DNA of 64,000 nt. Origin: a virus (lineage: Duplodnaviria > Caudoviricetes). Below are positions 881 to 35,078 of this stretch, one piece after another (positions within the stretch are counted from its first letter, which is position 1; each line of letters starts with the position of its first letter). The translations under genes were made by a program, and so were the position numbers. The stretch spans positions 32,001 through 96,000 of IMG/VR virus record IMGVR_UViG_3300026549_000046. One strand, written 5' to 3'. The notes under the pieces were generated by a model. The model was given only the letters and a program-made list of their open reading frames with translations, did no database searches and had not been told where the DNA came from.

Positions 881-1792
881 ATGGAAGAAATATGGAAACC
901 AATTGAGGGATTTGATAATTATGAAGTTTCAAATTTAGGGAACGTAAAAAATATTAAAAAAGATAAAGAATTAAAGAAATAGTTAAATAAATATTATAGT
1001 GTAGGACTTTATGATAATAATGGAAAATGTCATAAAAAATTAGTACATAGATTAGTAGCATAGGCATTTATTCCAAATCCGAATAATCTATCAATAGTAA
1101 ATCATAAGGATGAAAATAAATTAAATAATAGAGTAGATAATTTAGAATGGACTACATTAGAAGAAAATATTTTATATAGTGTAAAATCTCATCCGAATGA
1201 CATTAGGTATAAAGGAGCTAGTAAAAAAATAATACAATATGATTTAAAAGGAGAATATATTAAAATATGGGATTCAATAATAGAAGCTGCTAAATATTAT
1301 AAACTTGCTGTTACTAGTATATCATATTGTTTAAATGGGAGATGTAAAAATTCTGGAGGATTCCAATGGAAGTTTTATTCGGAAAATTTTCCATTAAATA
1401 TAGAATCTTGTGAAAACAATTGTCATAGAAAAGTTAAAATAATACAATATGATTTAGAAGGAAACTATATTAAAACATGGAATTCTATTAAAGAAATAAA
1501 AAATATATTAGGAATTAAGACTCCTTACAGGATATCTGAATGTTGTAAAGGATTATTAGATAACTATAACGGATATATTTGGAAATATTATTCTGACAAT
1601 TTCTTAAAAAAAATCGAAGTAAAAAAATTAAGAATTTTACAGTATGATTTAAATGGAAATTTATTAAATATTTATGAAGATATACCAAAAGCTTTAACTT
1701 CAGTTAAAGGAGTATCAGAAAAAATGATTATAGATTGTTGTAATGGATTGAGAAAAAAAGCCTATGGATATATATGGAAAAAAGAAATATAA
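881..1792 (+). CDS. NUMOD4/HNH homing endonuclease with C-terminal NUMOD1-like repeats; two in-frame TAG read as Gln (303 aa)
   Basis: MEEIWKPIEGFDNYEVSNLG (NUMOD4), HRLVA*AFIPNP...VNHKDENKLNNRVDNLEW (HNH), repeated IIQYDLxG..IK.W.S modules; TAG at 980 and 1061; ends TAA at 1792. Confidence 0.85.
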
Positions 1793-1824
1793 TATTTTTT
1801 TAACATTTTTTAATGTTTATATAT

Positions 1825-1854
1825 TTTGAGGTTTTACTCTAAATAATATATTTA
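1825..1854 (+). promoter_or_regulatory. putative promoter, TTTG-N18-TATATTTA
   Basis: Close to the Bacteroidota -33/-7 consensus (TTTG...TAnnTTTG); the same motif recurs at 8333-8363. Confidence 0.45.
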
Positions 1855-1959
1855 AATTACTTTCCTAATTGAGGAAAGAGATTCATAAAATTTAAGTAGA
1901 TAATTTTTTATGTGGAGAATAATTCTCCAATGAATAATGATAAAAAATCATAAAATTTT

Positions 1960-2499
1960 ATGGAAACTAATGTAATTTTTTCAAAGTTTGAAACAATTGG
2001 TACAACCAAAGATGAAGCAATTCGTAACGCAGCTCCCCTTAACCTTCGTGTAGACGCTACCCAAGCTTATAAGAAGTGGGCTAAGGAAAATGTGACTAAT
2101 GAAGATAATGTTAAAGAATGGATGAAGGACTATTTGAAGAAGAAGAAGTTTACAATGCCTAATGATGGTGCTTATATTGTTCTTCAAAGTGCTGTAACTG
2201 ATACTCGTGAGCGTCCTTATAAGGTAACAAAGCCTGAATATAAAACCAGAACTCATAGTCCTGAAAGATTCTATATTCTTCGTGATGCTACTGGACATGA
2301 AGTTGGTAGAGAAAAGACTTCTAAGGCTGCTGAACAAGCCGCTAAGGATTTTGTAATAGACTATAAGGAAGACATTACTATTAATGTTGAATGGGATTCT
2401 AAGGAGAAGAACTCTTTGTATGCTACAGTTAAGTATACTCCTTCTAAGGGAACTCAGAAAGCAAAATTGCTCGTTTTTGGATATAAATCTATCGATTAA
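1960..2499 (+). CDS. hypothetical protein, probably highly expressed
   Basis: 179-aa ORF with distinct codon usage (AAG, CGT, GCT), flanked by a promoter-like motif and a terminator. Confidence 0.8.
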   Translation: METNVIFSKFETIGTTKDEAIRNAAPLNLRVDATQAYKKWAKENVTNEDNVKEWMKDYLKKKKFTMPNDGAYIVLQSAVTDTRERPYKVTKPEYKTRTHSPERFYILRDATGHEVGREKTSKAAEQAAKDFVIDYKEDITINVEWDSKEKNSLYATVKYTPSKGTQKAKLLVFGYKSID

Positions 2500-2524
2500 T
2501 TCAGATACTGAAAAAATCTCTATA

Positions 2525-2558
2525 AGCTGACTAGAATACTCTAGTCAGCTATTTTTTT
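2525..2558 (+). terminator. intrinsic terminator
   Basis: agctgactag-aatact-ctagtcagct perfect stem followed by a T run. Confidence 0.85.
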
Positions 2559-2586
2559 ATTTACCACCTTTGTAAAACATTGAAAA

Positions 2587-4113
2587 ATGAATAAAATAAG
2601 TGAAAAGAAAATACATGAAATTATTGAAGACTTGAGAAAGTATAAATCATTAAATAATAAGAAGCATAAAGCACAATATTATTATCAAGCTAGACAAAAT
2701 ATTATAGATTCTGACCATCCTATCGAATTAATTAAAGAATTTTTGGATGAATATTCTAAATGTAAAAAGAATGTTACAACAAAAGAATCCATAGAAACTG
2801 ATGATAGAGCTGTTACTGATGTAGAGAGGGATGAAGAAGGAAGAATTCAATTTTATACTTTTGAAATATTTAGAAAAGATAAAAATCCAATTGTTGGAAA
2901 GTTTTCTAGAGAAGAAATGAATCTAGTGTATAGATTATATTCATATTACGGAGATTCATTAACACAACGTGTTATTTCTAGAAACTTTCCTGAATATTCT
3001 TTAATAGATTTTAAAAGAATTTTGAGATGTTTCCAAATAACAAAGAGTTCAGCTCCTTTTGCTCCCCATATGTTTGAGGAATTAAGCGAAGAAGAGTTAA
3101 GAAGTATTCAATTACGTGAAAAAGAGAATAGTTTTCTTAGAAAAGCCGAATCTGATATAATTAAAAACAATGAAAAGCTTTTAAAACAATATGCTAATGA
3201 AAATATTGAATTAAAAAGAAAATTAGAATCATTAGAATCATTTAAAATTATTTTGGATGACTCCATAAAAAGTATAAATTTAAATTATACTAAAAATAAA
3301 TCAAATTCGGATATAAACTTATATATATCAGATATACACTTAGGAGCCACAGTAACTACTGGATCTTTATATAAAGAAAATGAAAATTATGGCTTTGATG
3401 AAGCTAAAAGAAGATTAGAGTGTATATTATACAAAATTAAAGAAATTGGGTCTTATAATTGTATTAATTTAGTATTAATGGGAGACAACATTGATTGTTG
3501 TGGATTTGTTGGAAAAACATCAAGATTAGACCATACTATGCCAGAAAATATGGATGCTAGAGAACAAGCAAATAAATATATTAATTTAATGCTTTGGTTT
3601 ATAGAGTCCATAGTTAATACAAAAGAATTCTATTCTAAAATTAATGTATATTCTGTTCCTTGTGGAAATCACGGAGGAAACTTTGAATATGTATGTAATA
3701 AAGCTTTATTATCAACAATTAATGTTAAGTTTCCAGAAATAGAAACTACTTTATGGGAAGAATTTTATGGTAGTTTTGAATTAAATAATCATACCTTTAT
3801 TTGCCTTCATGGAAAAGAAGATCAATACATGAAAAAAGGATTCCCATTAAACTTAAATGATTCTACTAAAGTATTATTGTATGAGTGGATTACAGAAAAT
3901 AATATAAAATCTAAAAACCCTATACATTTTATTAAAGGAGATTTGCACTCTGATGCTTTAAATTCTTGTAAATTAATTGATTATAGAAATGTTTTAAGTT
4001 TATTTGGAGCTTCTGATTATTCTAATTATAATTTTAGTAGAAATTCATATGGAATGTCTTATGATTTATTTTTAGGAGATAATTTAATTAGAGGTACATT
4101 TAATAATATTTAA
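2587..4113 (+). CDS. calcineurin-like metallophosphoesterase with N-terminal extension
   Basis: SDIHLG, MGDNID, CGNHG, LHG and GDLH motifs. Confidence 0.75.
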   Translation: MNKISEKKIHEIIEDLRKYKSLNNKKHKAQYYYQARQNIIDSDHPIELIKEFLDEYSKCKKNVTTKESIETDDRAVTDVERDEEGRIQFYTFEIFRKDKNPIVGKFSREEMNLVYRLYSYYGDSLTQRVISRNFPEYSLIDFKRILRCFQITKSSAPFAPHMFEELSEEELRSIQLREKENSFLRKAESDIIKNNEKLLKQYANENIELKRKLESLESFKIILDDSIKSINLNYTKNKSNSDINLYISDIHLGATVTTGSLYKENENYGFDEAKRRLECILYKIKEIGSYNCINLVLMGDNIDCCGFVGKTSRLDHTMPENMDAREQANKYINLMLWFIESIVNTKEFYSKINVYSVPCGNHGGNFEYVCNKALLSTINVKFPEIETTLWEEFYGSFELNNHTFICLHGKEDQYMKKGFPLNLNDSTKVLLYEWITENNIKSKNPIHFIKGDLHSDALNSCKLIDYRNVLSLFGASDYSNYNFSRNSYGMSYDLFLGDNLIRGTFNNI

Positions 4114-4115
4114 AT

Positions 4116-5225
4116 ATGATTAAAAATAAATTAACTAATGAAGAATTTATAGAAATTTGTAAATAGAAACACAATAATAAATATGATTATAGTAAGACAA
4201 ATTATATAAATTCCTAGACAAAAATAACCATAACTTGTCCTATTCACGGAGATTTTGAACAAAAGGCTTATGTACATAAACGCGGACAAGGATGTCCAAA
4301 ATGTGCAAAATCAGTTAAAATAACTACAGAATAGTGGATAGAAAAAGCTAAAAAAATTCACGGAAATAAATATGATTATTCTAAGTCTAAATATACTGGA
4401 GCACATAATAATATTATTATAATATGTCCTGAACATGGTGAATTTCAACAAAAAGCTTATTCTCATTTGAATGGGTAGGGATGCCCTAAATGTGCAAATA
4501 AAGTAAAAAGTAATGATGACTTTATAGAAAAAGCTAAAAAAGTGCACGGAGATAAATATGATTATTCTTTAGTAAATTATAAAGGGGCTTTTAATCCTAT
4601 AAGAATTATTTGTCCCATACATGGAGAATTCAAACAAAAACCAAGAGATCACGTTTAGGGGTGTGGTTGTCCAAAATGTGCTAGAAATATTAAATTAACA
4701 ACTGAAACATTTATTGAAAAAGCTAGAAAAATTCATGGAGATAAATATGATTATAGTAAAGTTAATTATATAAATAATCATACTAAAGTGTGTATTATAT
4801 GCCCTGAACACGGAGAGTTTTGGATGAAACCTAATAATCATATAAATGGACAAGAACAAGGTTGTCCCAAATGTTCCGAATCTCATGGAGAAAAGTTTAT
4901 AAGAACTTATTTTGTAAATAATAATATAGAATTTGAAAGAAATTATATTATAGATATAGATAAATCCATTAATAAATCTGGAACTGCTAAAATAGATTTC
5001 TATGTTCCAAAATATAATTTAGCTATTGAATATAATGGATAGCAACATTATATTCCTATGGGATTTAGTGGAGGATAGATAGCTTTTGAACATTAGTAGA
5101 AAAGAGATTAGTATATAAGAGACTACTGTAATAATAATAAAATTAAATTGTTAGAAATATCTTATGAATATAATACTCAAGAAAAAATTAATAATATATT
5201 AAATAATTTTTTTAAAAACTTATAA
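4116..5225 (+). CDS. homing-type endonuclease: four Zn-binding repeats plus C-terminal Vsr/DUF559-like nuclease; TAG-recoded (369 aa)
   Basis: Repeats YDYSK..Y......IICPxHGxFxQ....H..GxGCPKC; IDFYVPKYNLAIEYNG*QHY; about 10 in-frame TAG and no TAA/TGA until 5223-5225. Confidence 0.85.
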
Positions 5226-5347
5226 TGGATAAGACAGAAGAATTATTAGAAAGATGTTTTAAATGCAAAAGTTATCAAGAAGATGATTGTGGAATCTATT
5301 TTATGATGGCTTTATGGCAAAAAGAATGTCCATTTTTAAAAAATTAA
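5225..5347 (+). CDS. small Cys-rich hypothetical protein (40 aa)
   Basis: MDKTEELLERCFKCKSYQEDDC...; TAATG overlap with the upstream stop. Confidence 0.5.
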   Translation: MDKTEELLERCFKCKSYQEDDCGIYFMMALWQKECPFLKN

Positions 5348-5352
5348 ATACT

Positions 5353-6039
5353 ATGATTACAAGAGATAGTATTCTTTCTAAAGCAATAGAAGAATGTATG
5401 AAGGAATTATATTCTTTAGCCCTTCCTTCTATTTCTTGGGAAGATTTTATAGAGGAAAATAGAATATATAGAGAAAGAGAAAAAAAGTGGGTAAATCTTC
5501 CCAAAGAAAATAAAATTTCTCATATAGAATATTGTGGTCCAAAGCCATTTGAATTTTACTATATTCCAAAAGAAATAATGAAGGATATAGTAGACTCCTA
5601 CATTTATTCATATAAATTAGATCAAAAACAAGAATTGCTTGATACTATAGAAATTCTTAAAAATTACTGTAAAGATCCTGTAGTTGATAAATATATTGAA
5701 GAAGAAAATGGAAGTTCTAGATATAAAGAGTACGAACATTGTGATAATTTAGAAACAGAGTTAAATCAATTATTTAAAGAATATTTTGGAGATTCAGAAA
5801 CCGATTCTCATTATGTTGGCAAAGAAGTTCAAAACAAATTCTTTGAATTTCTTGATATGGCAGGAAAATTTTTTAACTGGAATAGTGAATTAAATTATTT
5901 TAGTACATCTATATATTTAGGAGCAAGTCCTAATTCTAATAAAGAAGCAGTTATAGAAAATTGGAAGAAATATAGAAATCAAGATATTGAAATTAATGAA
6001 GAACAAATTAAAAAAGAGTATTATGGTGACAATGAATGA
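5353..6039 (+). CDS. hypothetical protein
   Basis: ORF 5287..6039, with the ATG at 5353 preferred because it avoids overlap. Confidence 0.7.
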   Translation: MITRDSILSKAIEECMKELYSLALPSISWEDFIEENRIYREREKKWVNLPKENKISHIEYCGPKPFEFYYIPKEIMKDIVDSYIYSYKLDQKQELLDTIEILKNYCKDPVVDKYIEEENGSSRYKEYEHCDNLETELNQLFKEYFGDSETDSHYVGKEVQNKFFEFLDMAGKFFNWNSELNYFSTSIYLGASPNSNKEAVIENWKKYRNQDIEINEEQIKKEYYGDNE

Positions 6040-6394: not shown

Positions 6395-6506
6395 AGATAT
6401 ATTAGAAGGAGCCGAACAAGCTTTAGTTAATTTAGAAGGAATAGCAAGTCAAGAAGATATTAATGCTATTCAAAGATTAATTAATTTTGTACAGGAGGAA
6501 TATTAA

Positions 6507-8425: not shown

Positions 8426-10564
8426 ATGAAAATTGTAAAAAGAAACGGACTAAAAGAAGAATACGATGCTAGAAAAATTATAAATGCTGTACAAAAAGCA
8501 TTTATATCATGTCAAGAGCATATAGATAATGAAGATTTACTAGAAATTATTAATTCGATTTCTATTTGGGAAAATATTAAATGTGAAGATATTGAAGACC
8601 AAGTAGAAGAACTTTTAATGTCTCAAGGATTTTACGATGTAGCTAAAGCGTATATCTTATATAGAGAACAACATAAAAATGCAAGATATATTCAAGACAG
8701 AATAGATTATATGAGTAAATATATCAATTCTTCTGATAATGCTGCTTCTTCATCTGAAACGGATGATAATGCTAATGTTTCCGTCAAAAACGTAGCTAAT
8801 TTAGAAGGTGAAGTTTATAAAACAACTAACCGCATTATACAAAGAAGAAGAATGAGAAAAAAATTGTCTGAAATCTTTCCAGAAGTTTCTAGCCAATATG
8901 AAAAGGATTTAAATCATCATATAATTTATACACATGACGAAGCTTCTACTCCAGTTTTAAAAGATTACTGTATGGCAGTTAGTTTGTATCCATTAATTAC
9001 TGAAGGGGTTGGCAATTTAGACGGAACAACTCCTAGTGCCCCTAACAATTTAAATTCTTTTTGTGGACAAATAGTCAATGCGGCATTTCTTTTAGCTGCT
9101 CAATGTAAAGGGGCAGTAGCTTTTGGTGGACTGTTTATTGCTTTTAATTATTATTGCATTAAAGAGTGGGGGAAGGATTATTATAAACACGATAACGATT
9201 TAATAACAACTAGTGTTTGTAATAAACAAAGAACTATTTCTGGAGCTATAGAACAAGCTTTTCAAGAAATTGTTTATGGATGGAATCAGCCTGCTGGAAA
9301 TCGAAGTTATCAGAGTCCTTTTACAAATATATCTTACTATGATTCCAATTATTTTAGAGCCATATTTGAAGATTTTATGTACCCAGATTTTACAAAACCA
9401 GAATGGGAAGCAATTGATTATCTTCAGAAAAAATTTATGAAATGGTTTAATAACGAAAGAACTAAAACAGTACTTACCTTTCCTGTAGAAACAATGGCTC
9501 TATTATCAGATGGAAATGATATTATAGATAAAGATTATAAAAACTTTACAGCAGAAATGTATGCTGAAGGACATTCTTTTTTTACTTATATATCTGATAA
9601 TGCTGATTCATTAAGCTCATGCTGTAGACTTAGAAATGAAATAGTGTCTAATGAATTTAGTTTTACTAATGGGCTTACTGGATTAAAAACAGGATCTTGC
9701 AATGTTATTACTTTAAATCTCAATAGAATTGTTCAAGATTGGGTAAAGTCAATTGGGGGAAAAATTCCGACAGTTGGAAATCAATATGATAGCTTAAAAT
9801 TTTATCTTATAAATATTCTAGAAAGAGTATATAAGTATCATATTGCTTATAAAACAATGCTTTATGAAGTAGAAAAGAAAGGAATGTTTACTTATAGTAA
9901 TGCTAATTATATTTCTATTAAAGATTTATTTAGTACAATAGGACTGAACGGAATTAATGAAGCAGCAATGTTCTTAGGAATAGATATTTCTTATAATGAA
10001 GAGTACAAAGATTTTTGTAATTTAATTACGGGAACAATTAGTGAACAAAATAAGCTTCATAGTACAAAAGAATTTCGTTTTAATAGTGAGTTTGTACCTG
10101 CAGAAAGTTTGGGAGCTAAGAATTTTAATTGGGATAAAGAAGATGGTTATATAGTTCCTAATGATGGAAGAGTTTTATATAATTCTTATTTCTATGATGC
10201 CCATGACGATACTTCAGTACTTGATAAATTTAGATTACATGGACGAGAATTTACTTCATTACTTGATGGTGGTGTAGGATTACATTGTAATTTAAATGAA
10301 CACCTTTCTAAAGAACAATATCTTAAACTTATAGATTTTGCTATAGAAGAAGGTACCTCTTATTTTACCTTTAATGTTCCTAATACTGAATGTAATGATT
10401 GTAAATTTATTACTAAAAAATATACTCATACTTGTCCTAAGTGTGGTAGTAGTAATCTTACTTATTGGACCAGAATAATAGGATATTTAAGACCTACTAA
10501 GAATTTTAGTAATGCAAGACAAATAGAAGAAAAACAAAGAACTTATAGTAAGGAGGTTGAGTAA
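8426..10564 (+). CDS. nrdD: anaerobic (class III) ribonucleoside-triphosphate reductase
   Basis: N-terminal ATP cone (MKIVKRNG), SSCCRL, Zn CxxC pairs, glycyl-radical motif TRIIGYL. Confidence 0.95.
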   Translation: MKIVKRNGLKEEYDARKIINAVQKAFISCQEHIDNEDLLEIINSISIWENIKCEDIEDQVEELLMSQGFYDVAKAYILYREQHKNARYIQDRIDYMSKYINSSDNAASSSETDDNANVSVKNVANLEGEVYKTTNRIIQRRRMRKKLSEIFPEVSSQYEKDLNHHIIYTHDEASTPVLKDYCMAVSLYPLITEGVGNLDGTTPSAPNNLNSFCGQIVNAAFLLAAQCKGAVAFGGLFIAFNYYCIKEWGKDYYKHDNDLITTSVCNKQRTISGAIEQAFQEIVYGWNQPAGNRSYQSPFTNISYYDSNYFRAIFEDFMYPDFTKPEWEAIDYLQKKFMKWFNNERTKTVLTFPVETMALLSDGNDIIDKDYKNFTAEMYAEGHSFFTYISDNADSLSSCCRLRNEIVSNEFSFTNGLTGLKTGSCNVITLNLNRIVQDWVKSIGGKIPTVGNQYDSLKFYLINILERVYKYHIAYKTMLYEVEKKGMFTYSNANYISIKDLFSTIGLNGINEAAMFLGIDISYNEEYKDFCNLITGTISEQNKLHSTKEFRFNSEFVPAESLGAKNFNWDKEDGYIVPNDGRVLYNSYFYDAHDDTSVLDKFRLHGREFTSLLDGGVGLHCNLNEHLSKEQYLKLIDFAIEEGTSYFTFNVPNTECNDCKFITKKYTHTCPKCGSSNLTYWTRIIGYLRPTKNFSNARQIEEKQRTYSKEVE

Positions 10565-12476: not shown

Positions 12477-12738
12477 TAATATAAAAGATAAGGAATTTCT
12501 AGATAAAATTAATCTAGAGATTCCTTTTTTTGTGGAATACATAGATGTCAATACGGTAAGAGGAAAAAAAGAAGGTTGGAAAGTAATGAATTATTATGGT
12601 ACAAATAAATTTCCTTTTGTAGAATTAGAATTAGATAGAGTAGAAAATAAATATAAACCGTTTTACAGTGAAAATGGTAATGCTGTAGGACAACTTATTA
12701 ATTATTTAAAGTGTTTAAATGAAAAAGAAAACAACTGA
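12454..12738 (+). CDS. glutaredoxin/thioredoxin-fold-like protein lacking CxxC
   Basis: MKVTVIY...VEYIDV...YGTNKFPFV pattern; start moved to the ATG at 12454. Confidence 0.4.
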   Translation: MKVTVIYNNIKDKEFLDKINLEIPFFVEYIDVNTVRGKKEGWKVMNYYGTNKFPFVELELDRVENKYKPFYSENGNAVGQLINYLKCLNEKENN

Positions 12739-13645
12739 ATAGTTTATAAAAGAAGCTCAGAATATTCATAATAATAAGTATAGTTATGAAAAAACTGTAT
12801 ATACAGGAGTATTTAATAAAGTAATTATTACTTGTCCTAAACACGGAGATTTCTTACAAACTCCTCACGATCATTTATAGGGCAAAGGTTGTAAAGGTTG
12901 TATGTGTGATAAAGCAAGATTAAGAAATCTTTCTAATACGTAGGAATTTATTGAAAAAGCACATAAAATTCATGACGGTAAATACGATTATAGTAAAGTA
13001 GATTATAAAAATGCAAAAACTAAAATATGTATTATTTGTCCTAAACATGGTGAATTTTATTAGACTCCAGATCATCATTTGCAAGGACAAGGATGTCCGA
13101 AATGTTCTGGAAAGAATAAAACTACAGAAGAATGGATAGAACAAGCAAAACATATTCATAAAAATAGATATGACTATTCTAATAGTATCTATATAAATAG
13201 TAGTACTCCAATAAAAATTATTTGTCCTATACATGGAGAATTTCAATAGTTGCCGGTAAATCATCTTAGTGGACATGGATGTTATAAATGTTCTAGATCT
13301 CATGGAGAAATAAAAATAGAAAACTATTTAAATAATTTAAATATAGAATATAAAAGTTTCTATAGAATTTGTATAGACAGAAATATAAATCCAAAGGGTT
13401 ATGCAGAGATAGATTTTTATATTCCGTCTATGAATTTATTTATAGAATATAATGGAAGACAACATTATATACCTATAGAACATTTTGGTGGAAGATTAGA
13501 ATTAGAACACCAACAAAAACGAGACGAATTTGTTAGAGAATATTGTAAAAGAAACAATATTAGATTGTTAGAAATTCCTTATACAGATGAAAATAATATT
13601 GATAATATATTAAACGATTTGTTTTATGAAAGAAATAAAATTTAA
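12719..13645 (+). CDS. homing-type endonuclease: three Zn repeats plus Vsr/DUF559-like nuclease; TAG-recoded (308 aa)
   Basis: MKKKTTE*FIKEA...CPKHG; five in-frame TAG; in frame with track ORF 13250..13645 (IDFYIPSMNLFIEYNGRQHY). Confidence 0.85.
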
Positions 13646-14494: not shown

Positions 14495-15746
14495 TTTATT
14501 TTCTTCTCAAATTCCTGACGAAAGAACTAGTTATTTAATTAGTCGAGATACTAAAGGAAAAATTCGTATTGCTATTATAAGTTATGAATTAATTAAAGAA
14601 GAAAATAATAGATATTTTATAATACATAGGGTATCTGGACAGTTAGGAGGTAAAAGAACTAAACAACCAGATATTATAGTTGATAGAGGAAAAGCAACTC
14701 GTAATCTTTTGGAACAAGTAGATTTGCAATTTAATCATTTAGTTAAAGAAAAGAAGGATAAGGGTTATAGAGAAGTTACTAAAGATCCAGAAGAATATAT
14801 GATTTCTGAATTAGAAGGAATTCTCGGATATATAGTTACTAATCAAGATAATGTTCCAAAACCAATGCTTGCTAAACAAGTAGATAAAGTAACTAATATG
14901 AAAATATTTGACAAAGAGTGGTATGCTTCAAGAAAAATCGATGGGTTGCGTTGCTTAATTTATATGGGAGATGATGGAAATCTTCATACTGCTTCTAGAG
15001 GAGCCATGAATTATGATGCTGCAATGTCCGACATTCTTGAACATCCTGATTTGATTCAACTCTTTAAAGAAAATCCAGGACTTATTATGGATGGAGAATG
15101 TTATCATCATGGATATAGTCTTCAACAGCTTAATAGTATTGCTCGTACACAAAAAACTGCTGTTGATTATGAAGTTCTCCAATTCTATTGGTATGATATT
15201 GTGGATACTAATTCTATATTTGAAGAAAGATGGACATATATGCAAGACTTAGTAGACGCATTAAATAAAACATCTCAATTTATCTCGTTTGACCCAGAAA
15301 GAGAATTTAAGGATGGAGAACTAAGGATTCAATTTGTACCTCAAATATTAGTATCTGGGTATGATAACATGATTAAACTACATAATGATTATGTAGAAGA
15401 CGGTTGGGAAGGTTTAGTTATTCGTGATCCCGATAAAGTTTATCGTCCTAATGGAAGAACGAATGATATGATTAAAATAAAAGTTTATCGTGATGACCTC
15501 TTTAAAGTGGTTGGTTATGAATTAGGTCTTCGGGGAAGTGAAGATATGGTATTTATTTGTCAGACTGAAGGTGGTAAAGAATTTAAAGCTAAACCTTTAG
15601 GAGATAGAGCCCAGAAAGAAGAATATATAAACAACTTTGACTCTTTATATAAGAACCATATTGGAGAATGTAAATTCTTCTATTATTCTGATGAAGGAAC
15701 TCCTCTTCAGCCTGCTTTTAAAGCTTTTAGGGAGGATATAGAATGA
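14487..15746 (+). CDS. ATP-dependent DNA ligase
   Basis: PMLA, KIDGLR, MDGE, EGLVIR and IKIK motifs. Confidence 0.92.
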   Translation: MSDLFSSQIPDERTSYLISRDTKGKIRIAIISYELIKEENNRYFIIHRVSGQLGGKRTKQPDIIVDRGKATRNLLEQVDLQFNHLVKEKKDKGYREVTKDPEEYMISELEGILGYIVTNQDNVPKPMLAKQVDKVTNMKIFDKEWYASRKIDGLRCLIYMGDDGNLHTASRGAMNYDAAMSDILEHPDLIQLFKENPGLIMDGECYHHGYSLQQLNSIARTQKTAVDYEVLQFYWYDIVDTNSIFEERWTYMQDLVDALNKTSQFISFDPEREFKDGELRIQFVPQILVSGYDNMIKLHNDYVEDGWEGLVIRDPDKVYRPNGRTNDMIKIKVYRDDLFKVVGYELGLRGSEDMVFICQTEGGKEFKAKPLGDRAQKEEYINNFDSLYKNHIGECKFFYYSDEGTPLQPAFKAFREDIE

Positions 15747-16321
15747 TATATATGTTAAAATCTGGAGAGTATATAAAGATAGGATATACTCAATCTTTAA
15801 AAACTTTTCCAAAAAGAATGGAAAGTTATTTTACTCACAATCCAGATGTTGAATTTATTGGATATAAAGAAGGAGATAAACAATTAGAGAAAAAATTTCA
15901 TGATAATTTATTTAAATATAAAATTGATTCTGCTTTAGAATGGTTTAAAGTTCCTGATGATATTTTTACAAAATTATTAAGTATATTTAATCCTGAAGGA
16001 AAAACTTATATAATAATAGGCTTTAGAAAAAATGATAGTATAGAAGAAAAAAACTTATCTGATTGTTTTGAAGAAGTTCATAAATACACTTTAGAATATT
16101 TTATTAATAATGTTAAAGATTTTTATTCTTCAGAAGAATTAAAAAAATTAATAATAGATATTAATTCAAAATTTAATATTAGATTAAATATAAGACCTGC
16201 TTCAGTTGGATTAATTGTAAGTATTAAAAAGACTACTATGAGAATTCCAATTACAAAAGGTGGTGGAACAAAAACAATGTATAAGTATTGTGGAAAAGAT
16301 CCTAATTACCACTATACTTAA
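15743..16321 (+). CDS. GIY-YIG / T5orf172-like endonuclease
   Basis: MIYMLK...YIKIGYT...R...NP...EKKFH...EWF; contains no TAG. Confidence 0.7.
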   Translation: MIYMLKSGEYIKIGYTQSLKTFPKRMESYFTHNPDVEFIGYKEGDKQLEKKFHDNLFKYKIDSALEWFKVPDDIFTKLLSIFNPEGKTYIIIGFRKNDSIEEKNLSDCFEEVHKYTLEYFINNVKDFYSSEELKKLIIDINSKFNIRLNIRPASVGLIVSIKKTTMRIPITKGGGTKTMYKYCGKDPNYHYT

Positions 16322-17216: not shown

Positions 17217-17494
17217 AAGAAATAAATCTTTATAATCGTGACAGAGCTAATTTACGGTTAATAAAATCTGATAAGCAAATAGATAAAAATATTTGGGTAT
17301 GGTATTTAGACGTTGACAAAGAACACAAATATGTACTTGATTTTTGTAGATATATTGGAGATAACTTTTTAGAACCAGAAGCTATTGATCCATCGGGGGG
17401 TCCTATGATTAATTTAGGGGATGAATTTGAAGGAAAATATAAGATAGTTAAAATTAATTCTGTTAATAATATTTGGATAAGTGAACTTCAATGA
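17213..17494 (+). CDS. hypothetical protein (IDPSGGP motif)
   Basis: ATGA overlap with the upstream gene. Confidence 0.65.
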   Translation: MKEINLYNRDRANLRLIKSDKQIDKNIWVWYLDVDKEHKYVLDFCRYIGDNFLEPEAIDPSGGPMINLGDEFEGKYKIVKINSVNNIWISELQ

Positions 17495-18299
17495 AGACAA
17501 AGAACTCTTAAAAGACTATTTTAAGGATATATCAAAATATCCAGTTCTTTCTAGTGAAGAGCAAATTGAATTAGCTAGGAAAGTAAAGAATGGGGATAAT
17601 AAAGCTAAAGATAAATTAATAACTTCAAATCTTAGATTTGTTATTACTTGTGCTAGACAATATTCTGGACAAGGAGTTCCTTTAATAGATCTTATAAATG
17701 CAGGAAACTATGGACTACTTTTAAGTTGTGCTAATTTTGATCCAGAAAGAGGCTATAAGTTTTTAAGTTTTGCAGTTTGGTATATTAGAAGAGAGATAAT
17801 TAAAGAAATTTATAATAACGGAAGAACAATAAGATATCCTATTACATATATAAGTAAAATAACGAAAGTAAAAAAAGCTTATGATGAATATGTTTTAAAA
17901 TATCAAAAAGAACCCTCTGACGAGGAGTTAATTAAATTAACTAATTTAACTGAAAAACAGTATAATTCTGTTATAACAAACAAATCTTATTGTCAATCCA
18001 TAGATACACCAATTTCAAAGAATGAAAAAACTACTATAGAAGATATATTAGAAGATAATAGTAATTCTAGTATTGATTCTTTTGGTGTTGAAGCTATTGA
18101 AAATTCCTTAAAGATTCTCAATCCTAAAGAATATTTAGTTATAACTAAATTTTATGGTCTATGTGGAAATCAAGAAAGTGCCATAAAAGATATTGCTAAA
18201 GAATTAGGACTAGGAGATGAAAGAATTAGACAAATTAGAAAATCTGCAATAAAAAAATTAAAAAGTAGGTGCGGAAAAACTTTAAAAACATTATTATGA
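17481..18299 (+). CDS. RNA polymerase sigma-70 family factor
   Basis: Region 1.2 (YFKDISKYPVLS), region 2 (SNLRFV, DLINAGNYGL, FDPERGYKFLSFAVWYIR), region 4 (ERIRQI). Confidence 0.92.
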   Translation: MNFNEDKELLKDYFKDISKYPVLSSEEQIELARKVKNGDNKAKDKLITSNLRFVITCARQYSGQGVPLIDLINAGNYGLLLSCANFDPERGYKFLSFAVWYIRREIIKEIYNNGRTIRYPITYISKITKVKKAYDEYVLKYQKEPSDEELIKLTNLTEKQYNSVITNKSYCQSIDTPISKNEKTTIEDILEDNSNSSIDSFGVEAIENSLKILNPKEYLVITKFYGLCGNQESAIKDIAKELGLGDERIRQIRKSAIKKLKSRCGKTLKTLL

Positions 18300-19361: not shown

Positions 19362-19748
19362 ATGACTGAAAAAGAATTTTTAGAAAAGAGAATTCCTATA
19401 TGGCTTGAAGGAGAGGATTTACATGTATCTACTCCTTCTAATATGGATAAGAATAATATTCATGCAATGCTTACAAAAAAGTACGGATATAATTTTATGT
19501 TTTGTATTAGGGGATATTATTGGCCAGGTTCTCATGTTCAATTATATATTGGACAATATGAATGTCCTAACTGTACTTTATTAGTAACATCATATTTATT
19601 TCAATATTTTCCAGATATTAAATATATTGGATTTGGCTGTTATGAAGGAAACCCCGGGGAAATATGGCCGGCCAAGATAGTTGTAGCTAGAAATATGGAG
19701 TGTTTGAAGGATGATATACTTAATAAGCAAACAGAAGCAGCTGTTTAA
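19362..19748 (+). CDS. hypothetical protein
   Basis: 128-aa ORF. Confidence 0.65.
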   Translation: MTEKEFLEKRIPIWLEGEDLHVSTPSNMDKNNIHAMLTKKYGYNFMFCIRGYYWPGSHVQLYIGQYECPNCTLLVTSYLFQYFPDIKYIGFGCYEGNPGEIWPAKIVVARNMECLKDDILNKQTEAAV

Positions 19749-22023
19749 AACTGATTTATATTTTGAAATATCTTTTGAAGAGGCTAGAAATGCTATTTGT
19801 AAACTTAGTGTAATTCAATTTGATACTGAAACTTCTGGATTAGATCCATATACTAAAGAATTACTTTGTTATCAATTGGGTAATAAAGAAAATCAGTATG
19901 TATTTGATCAATTCTCCTATCCTATAACTTTATTTAAAGAATTATTTGAATCAGAAAAACTTTTTATTGGACATAATATAGGATTTGATTTAAAGTGGTG
20001 TTATAAATATAATATATGGCCAAAACATGTTTATGATACTATGTTAGTTGAACAATTAATATGGTTAGGATATAGTCATAGAGCTATTTCTCCAGAAGAG
20101 TATCATGAAGAAAACTATAATTTTCCGTATCTTGAAAAAGAAAATAAGCAAACACATGAATCTTATTATGAATTTAGTTGTTCACTAAAAGCTGTTGGTC
20201 AAAATAGATTAAATATAGAATTAGACAAAACAGTTAGAGGAAAAATTGTTAAGGTAGGTCTTACTCCAGAAGTTATTAATTATGCTGCTACAGATGTAAT
20301 GCATCTTGAAGACATTAAGGAGTCTCAACAAAATGATATTGATAGAGAAAATCTTCAAAAAGCAGTAGATTTGGAAAATGAATTTGTTAAAGTATTAGCT
20401 TATATAGAATTTTGTGGAGTAAAACTTGATGTTGATAAATGGAAAGCTAAAATGGCTAAAGACCAAGAGAAGCTAGACATTGCTTCTAAAAAACTTAATG
20501 ATTTTATTATTAAGTATTTTAATGAACATCAAGGAAATATCCGATTAAAAACTATAGTTACAGAGCATGTGATTGATGCACAATGGATACATGATGAAGA
20601 GGAATTAAAAAAATATAATATTAAACTTTATCAACCCTCTGAAAAAGTTAAAAGATATTATACTAGAAAATCTGGTATTGATAAAGTAGGAACACTTTAT
20701 TGTGAAGAAGTAGAAATACCTTTCCCTTATGTAGAACAAAATTTACAGATGGATTTATTTCAAGAATTCGACCCAACTCCATTCTGTAATATTAATTGGA
20801 AGAGTCCTAAACAAACAATTCCAATATTTGAACTATTAGGATTTAAACTTGATACTTTCGATAAGAAAACTAAACAAAAAAAGAAATCCACTGATTCTGA
20901 TACTATTAAATCTCAAAGAGAAGTGTGCCCAGAAATAGCTGATGCTTATATAGAATTTAAAGAAGCTGCCAAAGTTTGTGATGCTTTTGGAGAAAACTGG
21001 TTAAAAGCAGTTAACCCAGTAACAGGTAGAATTCATGCAGATTTTCATCAATTAGGTGGAGATACTGCTAGATTAAGTTGTGGAGGGGGTGAGGCTTCAG
21101 TAAATGTTCAGCAATTACCGAGAGATGCTGAAACTAGAGCATGTTTTGTTTCAGAGCCTGGAAATTTATTTATTTCAGAAGACTACTCAGCACAGGAATC
21201 GAGGCTCTTAGCATCAGTAACAAATGATCCTGCTTTAATAGAACTTTATACAACTGGTTGCGGGGATTTACATTCTCTAACTGCATATATGTCTTTTCCT
21301 AATAGAATTCCTAGAGATACTAGAATTGAAGATATTAAACATCTTTTTCCTCAAGAACGTCAAGAAGCTAAATCTATTGAATTCTGTATTGGCTACGGAG
21401 GAACAGATGCTACTATGGTTCAAAATAATGGTTTAGAACCAACAGAAGCTAAAAAAATTTATAATGATTATATGAAAGGCTTTCCTGGAGTTAAGAAATA
21501 TCAAGATTATTGTCGTAAAGAAGTAGTTAGAAGAGGATATATCTTAATGAATCCAGTAACTGGACATAGAGCACATATTGAAGATTGGGATAATCGTTGG
21601 AGAAAAATACGTGATTTTGTAAACCAACCTGGATTTTATGAAGAATTCAATAGAATGAAAAAATATGATCCATACAGTAAAGAAGTTTATTGGATTAGGC
21701 AATGGTTTAAAAAGAAATCAGATATAGAAAAACAGTCTATTAATTACAGGATACAAAATAGAGGTGCCTGTTGTTTTAAACTTTCTGCTATATTGCTCTT
21801 CAAATGGATTATAAAGAATAATTATCAAAACATAGTTAAAATATGTGTTCCAGCACATGATGAATTTGATTGTGAATGTCCTGCAAGTATGGCTGAAGAA
21901 TTTGCTTTAGTATTACAAAAATGTATGGAAAATGGGGCTAAACCATTTTGTACCAGATTACCTTTAAGTTCTGATTTATCAAGACTTAAGGATGGAAGCA
22001 TTCCTAATTATTGGATACATTAA
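19711..22023 (+). CDS. polA: DNA polymerase family A with 3'-5' exonuclease
   Basis: FDTETSGL, GHNIGFD, YAATD (exonuclease); TARLS, DYSAQESR, RQEAKSIEFCIGYG, PAHDE (polymerase). Confidence 0.95.
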   Translation: MIYLISKQKQLFKTDLYFEISFEEARNAICKLSVIQFDTETSGLDPYTKELLCYQLGNKENQYVFDQFSYPITLFKELFESEKLFIGHNIGFDLKWCYKYNIWPKHVYDTMLVEQLIWLGYSHRAISPEEYHEENYNFPYLEKENKQTHESYYEFSCSLKAVGQNRLNIELDKTVRGKIVKVGLTPEVINYAATDVMHLEDIKESQQNDIDRENLQKAVDLENEFVKVLAYIEFCGVKLDVDKWKAKMAKDQEKLDIASKKLNDFIIKYFNEHQGNIRLKTIVTEHVIDAQWIHDEEELKKYNIKLYQPSEKVKRYYTRKSGIDKVGTLYCEEVEIPFPYVEQNLQMDLFQEFDPTPFCNINWKSPKQTIPIFELLGFKLDTFDKKTKQKKKSTDSDTIKSQREVCPEIADAYIEFKEAAKVCDAFGENWLKAVNPVTGRIHADFHQLGGDTARLSCGGGEASVNVQQLPRDAETRACFVSEPGNLFISEDYSAQESRLLASVTNDPALIELYTTGCGDLHSLTAYMSFPNRIPRDTRIEDIKHLFPQERQEAKSIEFCIGYGGTDATMVQNNGLEPTEAKKIYNDYMKGFPGVKKYQDYCRKEVVRRGYILMNPVTGHRAHIEDWDNRWRKIRDFVNQPGFYEEFNRMKKYDPYSKEVYWIRQWFKKKSDIEKQSINYRIQNRGACCFKLSAILLFKWIIKNNYQNIVKICVPAHDEFDCECPASMAEEFALVLQKCMENGAKPFCTRLPLSSDLSRLKDGSIPNYWIH

Positions 22024-30005: not shown

Positions 30006-30016
30006 ATAATAAAATT

Positions 30017-31207: not shown

Positions 31208-31335
31208 GTATAATTAGATGTCCAAAATGTAGTTCAGCAGTTCCAATTAATATTGTGAACGCTAAAGATGAACATGGAGAAGTTTTTGAATGTCCTTATT
31301 GTAAATTCTTATTTAGGTATGCTCCCAACGGATAA
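31204..31335 (+). CDS. small Zn-ribbon protein (43 aa)
   Basis: CPKC...CPYC; ATGA overlap with the pncB stop. Confidence 0.6.
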   Translation: MSIIRCPKCSSAVPINIVNAKDEHGEVFECPYCKFLFRYAPNG

Positions 31336-31436
31336 AGAAATAGAGAAAGTCTTAAAACTTTCAAAAGCATACACTCGATTAGGAGTGTATGCTCAACAAA
31401 GAATTAATATGTTTGATTTTATAAAACAAAATTGGA

Positions 31437-31691
31437 ATGGATAAAACAGTAATTAAATTAGTAACGGATTATATCTTAGCGCATCTCGATAAATCAGATG
31501 AAACCCCTCAGTTTGAAGTATTTACTGTTTGGAAATGTAAAATTCTTCAAAATTGGAAATATTTAGTTTCCACTACATTGCCAGACGGAATGTATTATGA
31601 ACTTACATTTGATGGAGATAAAAATAGATGGTATCTTGATGCCTATAAAAAGTTTGATAATCAGTGTTTAACTGTGGGCAAATTATTATGA
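31437..31691 (+). CDS. DUF6275-like phage protein
   Basis: WKCKILQNWK..STTLPDGMYYE.TFDGDK..YLDAYKK pattern. Confidence 0.65.
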   Translation: MDKTVIKLVTDYILAHLDKSDETPQFEVFTVWKCKILQNWKYLVSTTLPDGMYYELTFDGDKNRWYLDAYKKFDNQCLTVGKLL

Positions 31692-32557
31692 TTGATTATA
31701 GTAAATTTATAGAAAACTCTCATAAATGGTTATCTCAATATATAAGAGATAATCATTTACAGTCAATTTGCATTGGCATTTCTGGAGGACTAGATTCCTG
31801 TATTTCAGCTTGTATTGCTTCTCCAGTATGTGAAGAACTTGGGATTCCTTTAATTGGAAGAAGTTTACCTACTGGAACTAACAAACAATGTGAATGTGAT
31901 GTTGCAGATTTAGTTGGAAAAACTTTTTGTACTGATTATAAGAAAATTCCTATTAATTGTGATGATATTATTTATGAATTTGAATTATGTGAGGGCAAAA
32001 TGACTCCATTACAAAAGGGAAATATTAAAGCAAGATATAGAATGATGTATCTTTATAATCTTGCAAGTATTCATAAGGGTATTGTTTTAGATAATGATAA
32101 CTTTACTGAATGGAATTTAGGTTTTTGGACTTTAAAAGGTGATGAAGGGGATATTAACTTAGGTTTACATTATTTTTGGAAAACTGAAGTATATGAATTA
32201 GCTAAATATTTAGCAAATAATTATGCAGCTCAAGATAAGTTAAAAGAATCTAATGCAATAATAGAATCTATAAAACTTATTCCAACAGATGGTAATGGAG
32301 TTTCTAATTCAGACTGTGAACAATTTGGATTAGATAATTATGAACAAGTTGATGATGTTTTGAAAACTATGTATTATAATCATTATCCGAACTCAATTAG
32401 AGCTTTGAGTAAAGATGATTTAAACAAAGAATATACTCGACTTATTGATTCTTATAATGAGCAGGGAGTTGATAAAGTAATGTTGCTTCATCAGAATACT
32501 GCTTATAAAAGAAAAGAATTGCCTATCAAACCTACTAGAGAGGAATTAGGATTATGA
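31688..32557 (+). CDS. nadE: NH3-dependent NAD+ synthetase
   Basis: GISGGLDS PP-loop, GNIKARYRM, GFWTLKGD, KTEVYELA. Confidence 0.92.
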   Translation: MIDYSKFIENSHKWLSQYIRDNHLQSICIGISGGLDSCISACIASPVCEELGIPLIGRSLPTGTNKQCECDVADLVGKTFCTDYKKIPINCDDIIYEFELCEGKMTPLQKGNIKARYRMMYLYNLASIHKGIVLDNDNFTEWNLGFWTLKGDEGDINLGLHYFWKTEVYELAKYLANNYAAQDKLKESNAIIESIKLIPTDGNGVSNSDCEQFGLDNYEQVDDVLKTMYYNHYPNSIRALSKDDLNKEYTRLIDSYNEQGVDKVMLLHQNTAYKRKELPIKPTREELGL

Positions 32558-32703
32558 TTGGAGCTGATGTAGAATGTAAATGTAAATATTGTGGAAGTGA
32601 TGCTATTGCTCATACTGATGTAGTGTTAACTAGTATTCCTCCTCAATATAATGTAGATTGTCCGAAATGTGGAAGAATTTATATGTTATGTAGTGAAGTA
32701 TGA
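32554..32703 (+). CDS. small Zn-ribbon protein (49 aa)
   Basis: CKYC...LTSIPPQY..CPKC. Confidence 0.6.
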   Translation: MIGADVECKCKYCGSDAIAHTDVVLTSIPPQYNVDCPKCGRIYMLCSEV

Positions 32704-33015
32704 CAGGATATGAAGAATTTCAGCAAATAATGGCTGATATAGAATATTTTAAAAAGAATGGGATTCCTAGAGATCCTAGATATATAAAAGATAGAGATGG
32801 AAATACAATATTTGAAGATATTTTTGGAGATATTTTTAACAAAAAATGAGTACTTTTAATGAATTATTGCATACTTTAAAAGAAGTATGTGATGAAAAAG
32901 ATAAAAGAATAGAATTTCTAGAAGGAAGAATTGAAGGTTTAAATATACAATATTCTTTAATTAGAAAGAAATTCCTTGATGGAGATTATAAAACTCTTAG
33001 AAATTATTTTACAGA

Positions 33016-33216
33016 ATGATTAAAGTATTAGAACACGGAGTAAAAAAGGTCACTTGTCCGAATTGTAAAGCTAAATTACAATATGAACAAGAAGATATTT
33101 CAGAAGGCACAAAAGATGTAACAAATATACCATTTCTTGATGTAGGACAAATATATGAATTTATTATATGTCCAGATTGTGGAGAAAAAATAATGTTAAC
33201 CCCTATAAGGAGATGA
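33016..33216 (+). CDS. small Zn-ribbon protein
   Basis: CPNC...CPDC. Confidence 0.7.
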   Translation: MIKVLEHGVKKVTCPNCKAKLQYEQEDISEGTKDVTNIPFLDVGQIYEFIICPDCGEKIMLTPIRR

Positions 33217-33749
33217 AAATTGCATTATATCTTGGTTCATTTAATCCATTTCATAATGGTCATTTAGAAGTAGTTAAAACTGCTTTAAATGACTTTAAAA
33301 TGGATAAAGTAGTTATTGTTCCAACAATGCAAAATCCTTGGAAGAAGGAGAAAGTTCTTGATATTGATAAAAGATGTCAAATAATTTTTCAATCTTGTTT
33401 TGAAGTTTGGGATAATTATGAAATGTCCACTATAGAAAAATATTTAACTCCTCCTTATTATAGTTATGCTGCTCTTCATGCTTTAAAAAATAAATATTGT
33501 AATGATGAAATATTTGTTTTATGTGGAGAAGATACTATTAAGGATATTCCAAATTGGATGAATGGTGAAGCAATAATTCAAGATTATAATTTTCTTATAG
33601 TAGATAGGCCAAGAAATTCTATTTCATCTAGTTATATTAGAGAAATGCTAAGAACTAGAAATAAAATGGATGCATATTATAGTGATGAAAGATTAAGTAG
33701 ATATGTATCCCCTAATGTTATTAATTTATTAAAAGAATATTATGAATAA
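33213..33749 (+). CDS. nadD: nicotinate-nucleotide adenylyltransferase
   Basis: GSFNPFHNGH, QNPWK, CGED..W and ISSSYIR motifs. Confidence 0.9.
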   Translation: MKIALYLGSFNPFHNGHLEVVKTALNDFKMDKVVIVPTMQNPWKKEKVLDIDKRCQIIFQSCFEVWDNYEMSTIEKYLTPPYYSYAALHALKNKYCNDEIFVLCGEDTIKDIPNWMNGEAIIQDYNFLIVDRPRNSISSSYIREMLRTRNKMDAYYSDERLSRYVSPNVINLLKEYYE

Positions 33750-34134
33750 ATTTGGTTTTTATTTTGGAAGTTTTTGTTTATTTATTATTATATGTGTAGG
33801 TTCCTGTGTAGGAGTACCTTATTATAATGTATGGGAACAAGAAATGTCAGGTAAAGCAGAATTCGCTAAAGCAGAACAGAATAGAAAGATTCGTATCGAA
33901 GAAGCTAAAGCAAATCTTGAATCTGAAAAATTAAATGCTCAAGCAGAGATTGAAAGAGCTAAAGGCGCTGCTGAAGCTATTAAAATTGAGAATGGAGCTA
34001 TTACTCCTACTTATATTCAGTATCTTTGGGTAAGACAACAAAATTTATCTGGAGAAAATAGTAAAATAATTTATATCCCGACTTCTACTATGGGAATTCC
34101 TATAACAGAAGCAAATCGATTAAATGAAAAATAA
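33742..34134 (+). CDS. membrane-anchored coiled-coil protein (SPFH C-terminus-like)
   Basis: N-terminal TM, EAKA/ERAKG coiled coil, YIQYLW...IIYIP. Confidence 0.6.
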   Translation: MNKFGFYFGSFCLFIIICVGSCVGVPYYNVWEQEMSGKAEFAKAEQNRKIRIEEAKANLESEKLNAQAEIERAKGAAEAIKIENGAITPTYIQYLWVRQQNLSGENSKIIYIPTSTMGIPITEANRLNEK

Positions 34135-34136
34135 TT

Positions 34137-35078
34137 ATGAAAAAATTAACAACAGAGTAGTTTATAGAAAAAGCTAAAAGTATCCACAATAATAAATATG
34201 ATTATAGTAAATCTATCTATACTGGAAGACACAATAAATTAATTATTACGTGTCCTGTTCATGGTGATTTTAGTCAAGAAGCTGGGAGCCATCTTTTAGG
34301 AAATGGTTGTCCGAAATGCGGAAGAGAGAATACAATTAAACATCAAAGAAAATCTCTCGATCAATTTATAAAAGATTGTAAAAAAATTCATGGAGATAAA
34401 TATGATTATTCAAAAGTAGATTATAAAGGAGCAAAAAATAAAGTATGTATAGTATGTCCTATACATGGAGAGTTTTGGCAAACTCCAGATGATCATATAA
34501 ATGGAAAACATGAATGTCCTAAATGTGTTCATAAAAATGATAAATACACATTACAAGAATTTATAAATAATGCTAAACAAGTTCATGGTAATAAATATGA
34601 TTATAGTAAAGTTAATTATATTAATAATATTACCAAAGTAGAAATTATTTGTCCAGAACATGGAAGTTTTTGGCAAATTCCTACAAATCATATTTTAAAA
34701 GAATGTGGATGTCCTTATTGTAAAGAATCTAAAGGAGAAAAAATTGTATATAATATACTAAAAAAATTACACATTAATTTTATTAGGGAATATGAGATAC
34801 CTCTTCCAACATCTATTAGATCTAGTGGAAAAGGTTATATAGATTTTTATCTTCCGGATTTTAATATTTTTATAGAATATAATGGACAACAACACTATAT
34901 GCCAATTAATATTTTTGGAGGAAAAATTTAGTTAAATAAATAGATTGAAAGAGATAATTATGTTAAAAATTATTGTGAAAATAATAATATAAAATTTGTA
35001 GAATTAAAATATGATTTATCTGAAGAATAGATAGAAAATATTTTAAAACTTATTCTAAAATCAGGAAGAGGTAAATGA
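34137..35078 (+). CDS. homing-type endonuclease: three Zn repeats plus Vsr/DUF559-like nuclease; TAG-recoded (313 aa), missed by the ORF track
   Basis: MKKLTTE*FIEKA...CPVHG/CPIHG/CPEHG; IDFYLPDFNIFIEYNGQQHY; TAG at 34158, 34929, 34941 and 35028. Confidence 0.85.

Follow-up and report, generated by a model that had tools for sequence, protein, structure and literature searches.

Amber codons in early-arm homing endonuclease genes suggest a translational gate in a crAss-like phage

Four homing endonuclease genes (HEGs) lodged among the early genes of a crAss-like gut phage carry in-frame amber (TAG) codons of the kind found in its late genes, and these codons may delay production of the nucleases during infection. 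The window analyzed here is a stretch of 64,000 nucleotides, bases 32001-96000 of one 132,047-bp contig (IMG/VR record IMGVR_UViG_3300026549_000046, hereafter G000); coordinates are those of the window unless "genome" is stated. The four HEGs, named here by their first base (881, 4116, 12719, and 34137), and the other features discussed are listed in Table 1. We consider it probable, at about 0.62, that the amber codons constitute a post-transcriptional gate that delays HEGs in the early arm.

Homing endonuclease genes with in-frame TAG in a standard-code arm

The + strand half of the genome is dense with open reading frames (ORFs) under the standard code, and the - strand half is fragmented. 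With Gln assigned to TAG, giant ORFs of 1203-2882 aa, with 30-59 TAGs each, emerge in the - half. The + arm (genome 400-67,600 of the whole contig) contains replication and nucleotide-metabolism genes, among which NrdD, an ATP-dependent ligase, NAPRTase (PncB), NAD synthase, an isochorismatase, and a sigma-70-family factor were confirmed with Pfam, and its PolA is 40-45% identical to those of crAss001, IAS virus, and other crAss-like phages. An earlier note on this DNA had described the core early genes as free of in-frame TAG, and this holds for NrdD (712 aa), PolA (770 aa), the ligase, and PncB. The phage is crAss-like, its late genes read TAG as Gln, and its + arm uses the standard code. 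The amino acid assignment is seen in the HEGs themselves, since Q occupies the two HEG TAG positions that lie within conserved motifs in 70/77 standard-code homologues.

The four HEGs have a TAG share, defined as TAG/(TAG+CAA+CAG), of 0.404, as against 0.070 for the other + arm ORFs and 0.468 for the late arm; they differ from the other + arm ORFs (Fisher p=4e-10) and not significantly from late genes. Spurious ORFs and N-terminal extensions account for most of the residual 7% in the + arm. One 128-aa + arm ORF with 3 TAGs (genome 29614-30000) was discarded because it overlies two small TAG-free genes in the wrong frame. These values support a late-gene-like coding of the four HEGs, packed though they are in TAG-free operons.

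The earlier note had singled out these four genes by a first in-frame TAG at codons 34, 17, 8, and 8, all of which we confirm, with totals of 2, 10, 5, and 4 TAGs. In each of them no other Gln codon precedes the first TAG, and in HEG 881 the two TAGs are the first two of six Gln codons. The motif TTE-TAG-F, likewise noticed earlier in two of the genes, is common to HEGs 12719 and 34137, and HEG 4116 has TTE-TAG-W at codon 73. The four ORFs stay open only when TAG is translated, and their 303-369 codons of 25%-GC DNA include no TAA or TGA; base composition alone would give ~300 codons lacking both with a chance of ~5e-10. Spacing to the neighbouring genes is tight: HEG 4116 starts 2 nt past the stop of a 508-aa gene, HEG 12719 overlaps each of its neighbours by 20 nt, and HEG 34137, the second-to-last gene of the + arm, begins 2 nt after the preceding stop. 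No Rfam intron was found in the + arm of the window, and the four ORFs sit between intact genes rather than in a group I intron of an early gene.

The protein evidence is that of a set of nucleases. HEG 881 matches HNH_3 in Pfam with E=9e-9. HEGs 4116, 12719, and 34137 are paralogues with 51-56% identity, each composed of 3-4 DUF723/treble-clef repeats (DUF723/DUF4379) and a C-terminal domain, and the HEG matches among PHROG families are to 559/9084. A structural model of HEG 12719, built with 27 homologues, has a predicted local distance difference test score (pLDDT) of 91. Its C-terminal domain best matches the catalytic domain of I-Bth0305I and then Vsr, at a weak Foldseek E-value of 0.02 with probability 1.0 and at template modelling (TM) scores of 0.66-0.69 when normalised by target. 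The family alignment has invariant D232, E243, H249, and D269, and a PDB sequence search with a DUF723-type HEG matched no chain. By these sequence and model criteria the four ORFs are nucleases encoded by intact homing endonuclease genes, with cleavage predicted.

A GIY-YIG-like gene at 15743 had been put forward in the earlier note as a counter-example. It is indeed TAG-free, but it is uninformative in that role because it has only two Gln codons, with which zero TAG is expected at p ~0.36. A T5orf172+NUMOD1 relative in G005, the closest relative of this phage, has TAG at 6/8 Gln codons.

Recurrence in recoded relatives

The same contrast recurs among eight TAG-recoded genomes or fragments: G000 and seven IMG/VR contigs, the latter retrieved by searches with HEGs or flanking genes. 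In these eight, ORFs were called with TAG as sense and 49 HEG ORFs were collected by iterative BLAST from Pfam-verified seeds. A count of TAG against CAA and CAG in related genomes, which the earlier note had proposed, gives a strong enrichment: HEGs in the early arm (that is, in TAG-poor context) use TAG at 91 of 285 Gln codons (32%), versus 150 of 3028 (5%) in their neighbours (p=4e-40). At least two TAGs occur in 15/28 early-arm HEGs versus 27/455 other genes, an odds ratio of 18. The families are diverse and include the DUF723 type (8/8 copies TAG-bearing), HNH, GIY-YIG-NUMOD, T5orf172-NUMOD, LAGLIDADG, and PD-(D/E)XK, and all 8 copies of the DUF723 type begin between -23 and +2 nt relative to the upstream stop. 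One LAGLIDADG ORF (in G003) has a TAG only at its very end, probably its stop, and was counted as TAG-free.

Among early-arm HEGs, the distance to the upstream gene does not differ between TAG-bearing and TAG-free copies (p=0.25), and a comparison of GC content at third codon positions (GC3) for recent arrival of the TAG-free HEGs shows no difference either (p=0.54). Searches of IMG/VR with DUF723-type alignments returned mostly standard-code homologues and recovered four recoded loci, a low yield because tblastn ranking penalises TAG-bearing copies.

Position of the first TAG, start hairpins, and intron-borne HEGs

Three features of these genomes partly support a gate over drift alone as the explanation of this coding. 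The first is where the TAG codons fall. The first Gln codon is TAG in 13 of the 17 TAG-bearing early-arm HEGs, versus 7.0 expected from their own TAG share (P=0.0018); the late genes (n=210) have no such bias, with 97 observed versus 94.9 expected. DUF723 lineages differ in the codon that carries the N-terminal TAG (4, 8, 12, 15/16, or 17), and within the two diverged DUF723 pairs examined the N-terminal TAG is the sole TAG shared.

Another feature is RNA structure at the start codon. Taking a pairing probability of at least 0.8 over positions -12..+3 as the criterion, a start hairpin is present in 6/10 TAG-free early-arm HEGs, in 0/16 TAG-bearing ones, in 0/18 late-arm HEGs, and in 2.1% of 335 other TAG-free genes, so that hairpin and TAG tend to exclude each other in early-arm HEGs (Fisher p=0.0009). 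The six hairpins have 12-15 bp, bury the AUG or the bases just 5' of it, and reach z -2.45 to -6.87 against dinucleotide shuffles. In two homologous GIY-type HEGs (G005 and G008) the hairpin is kept and the sequences differ. The start regions of the four window HEGs have no hairpin (minimum free energy -1.5 to -4.5 kcal/mol, z>0).

The remaining feature concerns HEGs in the opposite setting. Five GIY-YIG/NUMOD ORFs in the late arm of G000 use 0 TAG at 47 Gln codons versus 37-46% in their neighbours (p=7e-13), and over all genomes late-arm HEGs have 21/219 versus 0.43 in neighbours (p=4e-26). Intron HEGs of the late arm are near TAG-free in G005 and G007 too, G008 being the exception (9/28). 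Because these GIY-NUMOD HEGs share 30-63% mutual identity and their GC3 matches the resident genome, they appear to be old residents; being old yet TAG-free, they suggest that residence in a recoded phage does not by itself load a HEG with TAG. An IMG/VR search for close relatives of one of them found none above ~45% identity on short stretches.

Recent mobility

G005 (an IMG/VR contig, locus L171) is 64-73% identical to G000 across most of the region, and against this background sliding identity and a blastn mosaic reveal a tract of 100% identity flanked by sequence at 87-98%. It takes in the 3' portion of the 508-aa gene, reaches as far as the beginning of HEG 4116, and is centred on the junction of the two. 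Within HEG 4116 identity is 93-98%, and its G005 orthologue (94% identity) has the same 10 TAGs. This gradient resembles a co-conversion footprint of recent exchange.

Other sites are polymorphic between the two genomes. HEG 881 is absent from the matching site of G005, where 770-1797 of the window is an insertion, and ~12491-13636, which includes HEG 12719, has no counterpart in G005 and marks an empty site; G005 in turn carries other HEGs where the sites of G000 are empty. As judged from the identical tract and the empty sites in the closest relative, the HEGs have been mobile recently. The segment that G005 lacks has at its left edge a terminator-like hairpin (12490-12526, +; 15 bp and a T run), located within a 119-aa ORF 5' of HEG 12719. 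The cassette of this HEG may have brought its own upstream region along.

Proposed mechanism and its alternatives

In the mechanism that we propose, the four ORFs would be active, mobile HEGs lodged in the standard-code early + arm. Early in infection TAG would terminate translation, so that ribosomes would halt after 7-33 codons and no nuclease would be made. Full-length HEG product would appear only once amber suppression is active, via a tRNA with anticodon CUA (tRNA-CUA) such as relatives encode. Amber codons would in this way do the job of the start-codon hairpins of T4 I-TevI, mobE, and segB, and start hairpins apparently gate the TAG-free HEGs of relatives likewise. We infer that the delay benefits the HEG or the phage. 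A wider generalization is tentative and may well not hold: every early-operon HEG in the clade would need a translational gate, either an amber at the first Gln codon or a T4-like start hairpin, the two being interchangeable, and the late capsid intron HEGs would need neither and be kept TAG-free. On this view the timing that the element requires, rather than the arm it occupies, would determine how a HEG is coded, and homing would have several convergent timers, the genetic code among them.

Several points weigh against a gate. An internal TAG is missing from 11-12 of the 28 early-arm HEGs (HNH/GIY-YIG and LAGLIDADG types), four of which have no hairpin either. The earlier claim that these nucleases reach full length only after an amber switch thus survives in part, favoured by the TAG pattern, its recurrence, the first-Gln bias, and the hairpin exclusion, but not as a general rule. 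HEG calls were made by iterative BLAST and only part of them was re-verified with Pfam. Samples are small, with 17 genes in the N-terminal comparison and 26 in the hairpin comparison, drawn from 8 partly related genomes, and both comparisons were devised after the data had been seen. A HEG TAG share at the level of late genes is also expected from drift under relaxed constraint. Co-transcription of the HEGs with the early genes is suggested only by their tight spacing, and a terminator-like hairpin stands 193 nt upstream of HEG 12719. For a late onset of amber suppression, which the literature infers, the support is indirect and comes from metaproteomics (PMC9523058). Finally, no tRNA-CUA was found on the 132-kb contig with ARAGORN (default and relaxed settings, with introns, with joined ends) or with Rfam at gathering and E-value thresholds.

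With no suppressor tRNA on the contig, the code switch has to be deduced from relatives. A tRNA-CUA is present in G001, G002, G003, G006, and G007, in every case at the arm boundary next to where the early arm starts. The contig break of G000 falls at this boundary, and a tRNA-CUA is likewise missing from the incomplete contigs G005 and G008. Since the suppressor tRNA of relatives sits exactly at this boundary, the contig is probably incomplete and the tRNA-CUA missing for that reason; complete relatives measure 160-176 kb. The contig ends (genome 1-400 and 131200-132047) contain neither a terminal repeat nor a tRNA-CUA, and matches to tRNAs obtained in G000 at relaxed settings were dismissed as noise.

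The most serious competitor of a gate, though in our judgment an unlikely one, is relaxed constraint with drift, by which HEGs are dispensable, TAG reaches the mutational equilibrium of late genes, and any delay is a non-adaptive by-product. It accommodates the HEG TAG share of 0.40, indistinguishable from the 0.47 of late genes, as well as TAG positions that are mostly unshared between paralogues, the many early-arm HEGs of relatives that have no TAG, and a GC3 that in all HEG classes tracks the resident genome. Drift does not predict, however, that the first Gln codon is TAG in 13/17 genes where 7 are expected, that hairpins occur on TAG-free but not on TAG-bearing HEGs, or that intron HEGs of equal age remain without TAG in the TAG-rich arm. 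A gene for a RusA-like nuclease adds to this. It has exactly one TAG, at codon 3-6, kept in six genomes at 38-58% identity, its other Gln codons being CAA or CAG, and this conserved single N-terminal TAG shows selection for an amber gate in the clade.

Imported coding is improbable; on that reading the TAG-bearing HEGs would be recent arrivals from late arms or from other, fully recoded phages, still to be purged. The recent movement of HEG 4116 between the G000 and G005 lineages and the polymorphism of HEG sites fit with it, yet the late arm of G000 contains neither a DUF723-type nor an HNH paralogue, all eight DUF723-type copies of recoded relatives sit in TAG-free arms, the possible late-arm donor HEGs are TAG-free, and the three G000 paralogues are only 51-56% identical, as old residents would be. 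Import is also favoured by the best 80 DUF723-type homologues in IMG/VR, 76 of which belong to standard-code phages and have no TAG, from which it follows that TAG was acquired within recoded lineages. It is harder still to credit, and already at odds with the data, that the TAGs are true nonsense mutations in dying HEGs. Such genes often degenerate, and one relative (L185) has a truncated DUF723-type copy; in the ORFs at hand, on the other hand, the sole stop codon within 303-369 codons is TAG, with no TAA or TGA, the domain alignments continue through the TAGs, which at conserved sites align with Q in the large majority of homologues noted above, and the model is confident at pLDDT 91. The same 10 TAGs, moreover, are kept in the 94% identical orthologue beside the 100%-identical tract.

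Other features of the two arms

Besides the RusA-like gene, the early arm of G000 holds a TAG-rich gene of 319 aa with weak similarity to endolysins (Table 1). TAG-rich early-arm ORFs with the same opening TAG codons (11, 15, and 17) occur in G001 (463 aa, 14 TAG) and G005 (608 aa, 17 TAG). These other TAG-bearing early-arm genes fit a theme of late nuclease and lysis functions.

A different use of TAG is seen in several early genes of relatives (L172-L176 and L180-L184; for example, L172:9866-11506), in which a TAG stands a few codons before TAA or TGA. Its positions include codon 516 of 533-546, codon 337 of 340, and codon 455 of 456. The near-terminal TAG probably serves as the early stop, with a back-up stop for the read-through phase. 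The early genes of G000 have no near-terminal TAG stops of this kind.

In G008 the homologue of the 508-aa gene is split by a TAG-free LAGLIDADG ORF. The sigma-70-family factor of the + arm is a candidate for steering host RNA polymerase to later genes; sites of the sigma-70 promoter type are not commoner in G000 than in shuffled sequence. Enrichment of k-mers in + arm gaps returned only GATTGAGATATG, the start-codon context of small genes, and seven small genes at genome 14803-17649 (+, outside the window) begin in near-identical copies of it. The 8-mer TTGAGATA is ~10-fold enriched in + arm gaps. Where the arms converge (35622-36058, +) there are three strong terminator-like hairpins with 15-19 bp stems followed by T runs.

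Table 1. Positions of the features discussed, in window coordinates unless marked as genome or given by locus.
Feature	Position	Strand	Remarks
HNH HEG, free-standing (NUMOD4 + HNH_3 + NUMOD1 x2)	881..1792	+	303 aa; 2 TAG, codons 34 (980-982) and 61
508-aa early gene, family unassigned	2587..4113	+	TAG-free; directly 5' of HEG 4116; 3' part inside the 100%-identity tract
Tract 100% identical to G005	3176..4175	.	flanks 87-98%, background 64-73%
DUF723-repeat / EDxHD-Vsr-like HEG	4116..5225	+	369 aa; 10 TAG, first at codon 17 (4164-4166)
NrdD (ATP-cone + NRDD)	8426..10564	+	712 aa; 22 Gln codons, no TAG; core early gene
DUF723-type HEG	12719..13645	+	308 aa; 5 TAG, first at codon 8 (12740-12742)
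T5orf172/MUG113 gene (GIY-YIG superfamily)	15743..16321	+	192 aa; no TAG, two Gln codons
Sigma-70-family factor (regions 1.2, 2, 3, 4)	17481-18299	+	TAG-free; early arm
DNA polymerase I	19711..22023	+	770 aa; 36 Gln codons, no TAG
DUF723-type HEG	34137..35078	+	313 aa; 4 TAG, first at codon 8 (34158-34160)
Late arm	36062..63999	-	giant ORFs open only with TAG=Gln; 47, 7, 32, 56, 59, 30 TAGs; TAG ~47% of Gln codons
319-aa gene, weak endolysin similarity (PHROG 2649/17214)	genome 7137-8096 (L001:7137-8096), outside window	+	11 TAGs
RusA-like nuclease gene (PHROG 244, weak)	genome 30003-30557 (L002:10003-10557), outside window	+	begins ATG AAG TAG
Five GIY-YIG/NUMOD ORFs	genome 119240-125934 (window-equivalent 87240-93934; L004:3240-9934), outside window	-	in split capsid gene; group I core GTTCAACGACTAG 5'
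Start hairpins of TAG-free HEGs in relatives	L191:18468-18537(-), L191:12481-12550(-), L212:2776-2845, L213:4844-4913, L212:11392-11461, L190:13692-13761(-)

Implications and comparison with known systems

If the gate is real, stop codon reassignment would schedule selfish nucleases and a junction resolvase within early operons, beyond virion and lysis genes, and phage code switching and the regulation of homing would become linked fields. The mutual exclusion of amber codons and hairpins is a falsifiable, purely genomic prediction that can be applied to thousands of recoded phages. The TAG-free intron HEGs provide an internal control for drift. On the practical side, gene calling under code 11 breaks the early-arm HEGs of recoded phages into apparent fragments, and code 15 should be used to annotate them.

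The two-arm organization itself has precedents. Recoding restricted to the late genes is known from code-15 (TAG=Gln) crAss-like phages (Yutin et al. PMC7886860; Peters et al. PMC9523058). For two crAss-like phages, proteomics gives evidence that Gln is inserted at TAG, and the peptides of early-region proteins show no recoding (PMC9523058). Like G000, the code-15 phages have a TAG-free replication arm and a TAG-rich virion arm (PMC7886860), a suppressor tRNA that is sometimes undetectable, and many introns and HEGs. The difference is that, as far as we searched them, neither PMC7886860 nor PMC9523058 singles out early-arm HEGs as TAG carriers or reports TAG-free intron HEGs in late genes. At the protein level, the C-terminal domain of the DUF723-type model resembles I-Bth0305I (EDxHD family, PDB 3r3p) and Vsr; it differs from I-Bth0305I in its N-terminal DNA-binding part, which here is made of the DUF723/treble-clef repeats described above.

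Delayed translation is well known from T4-type phages, where it affects I-TevI, I-TevII, I-TevIII, Aeh1 mobE, T4 segB, the lysozyme gene e, and the endonuclease VII gene 49, and where an RNA hairpin acts as the gate until late promoters supply transcripts that relieve it (PMC3014915). As in T4, nucleases in early or middle transcripts would here stay untranslated until late, and the gene classes are the same, those here being HEGs, the RusA-like resolvase with one N-terminal TAG, and the TAG-rich lysis-like gene. The TAG-free HEGs of relatives even carry comparable hairpins at the AUG. The four HEGs of the window differ from the T4 genes in having no hairpin, and their gate would be the genetic code itself.

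A delay of HEGs by the code has already been published and is not new here. In the TGA-recoded Agate phages, the endonuclease of a group I intron in an early gene is preferentially recoded, and in-frame stops should block production of the endonuclease until late infection (Borges et al., bioRxiv 10.1101/2021.08.26.457843). Common to Agate and the present phage are an early context in the standard code and a HEG that uses the reassigned stop more than its neighbours do. In Agate, however, TGA is read as Trp and one intron-encoded HEG family is involved, in another clade, whereas here TAG is read as Gln and four free-standing HEGs belong to two families. The comparative evidence added here, which as far as we searched the literature appears to be new, consists of the bias of TAG towards the first Gln codon, the mutual exclusion of amber codons and start hairpins, and the TAG-free intron HEGs of the late arm.

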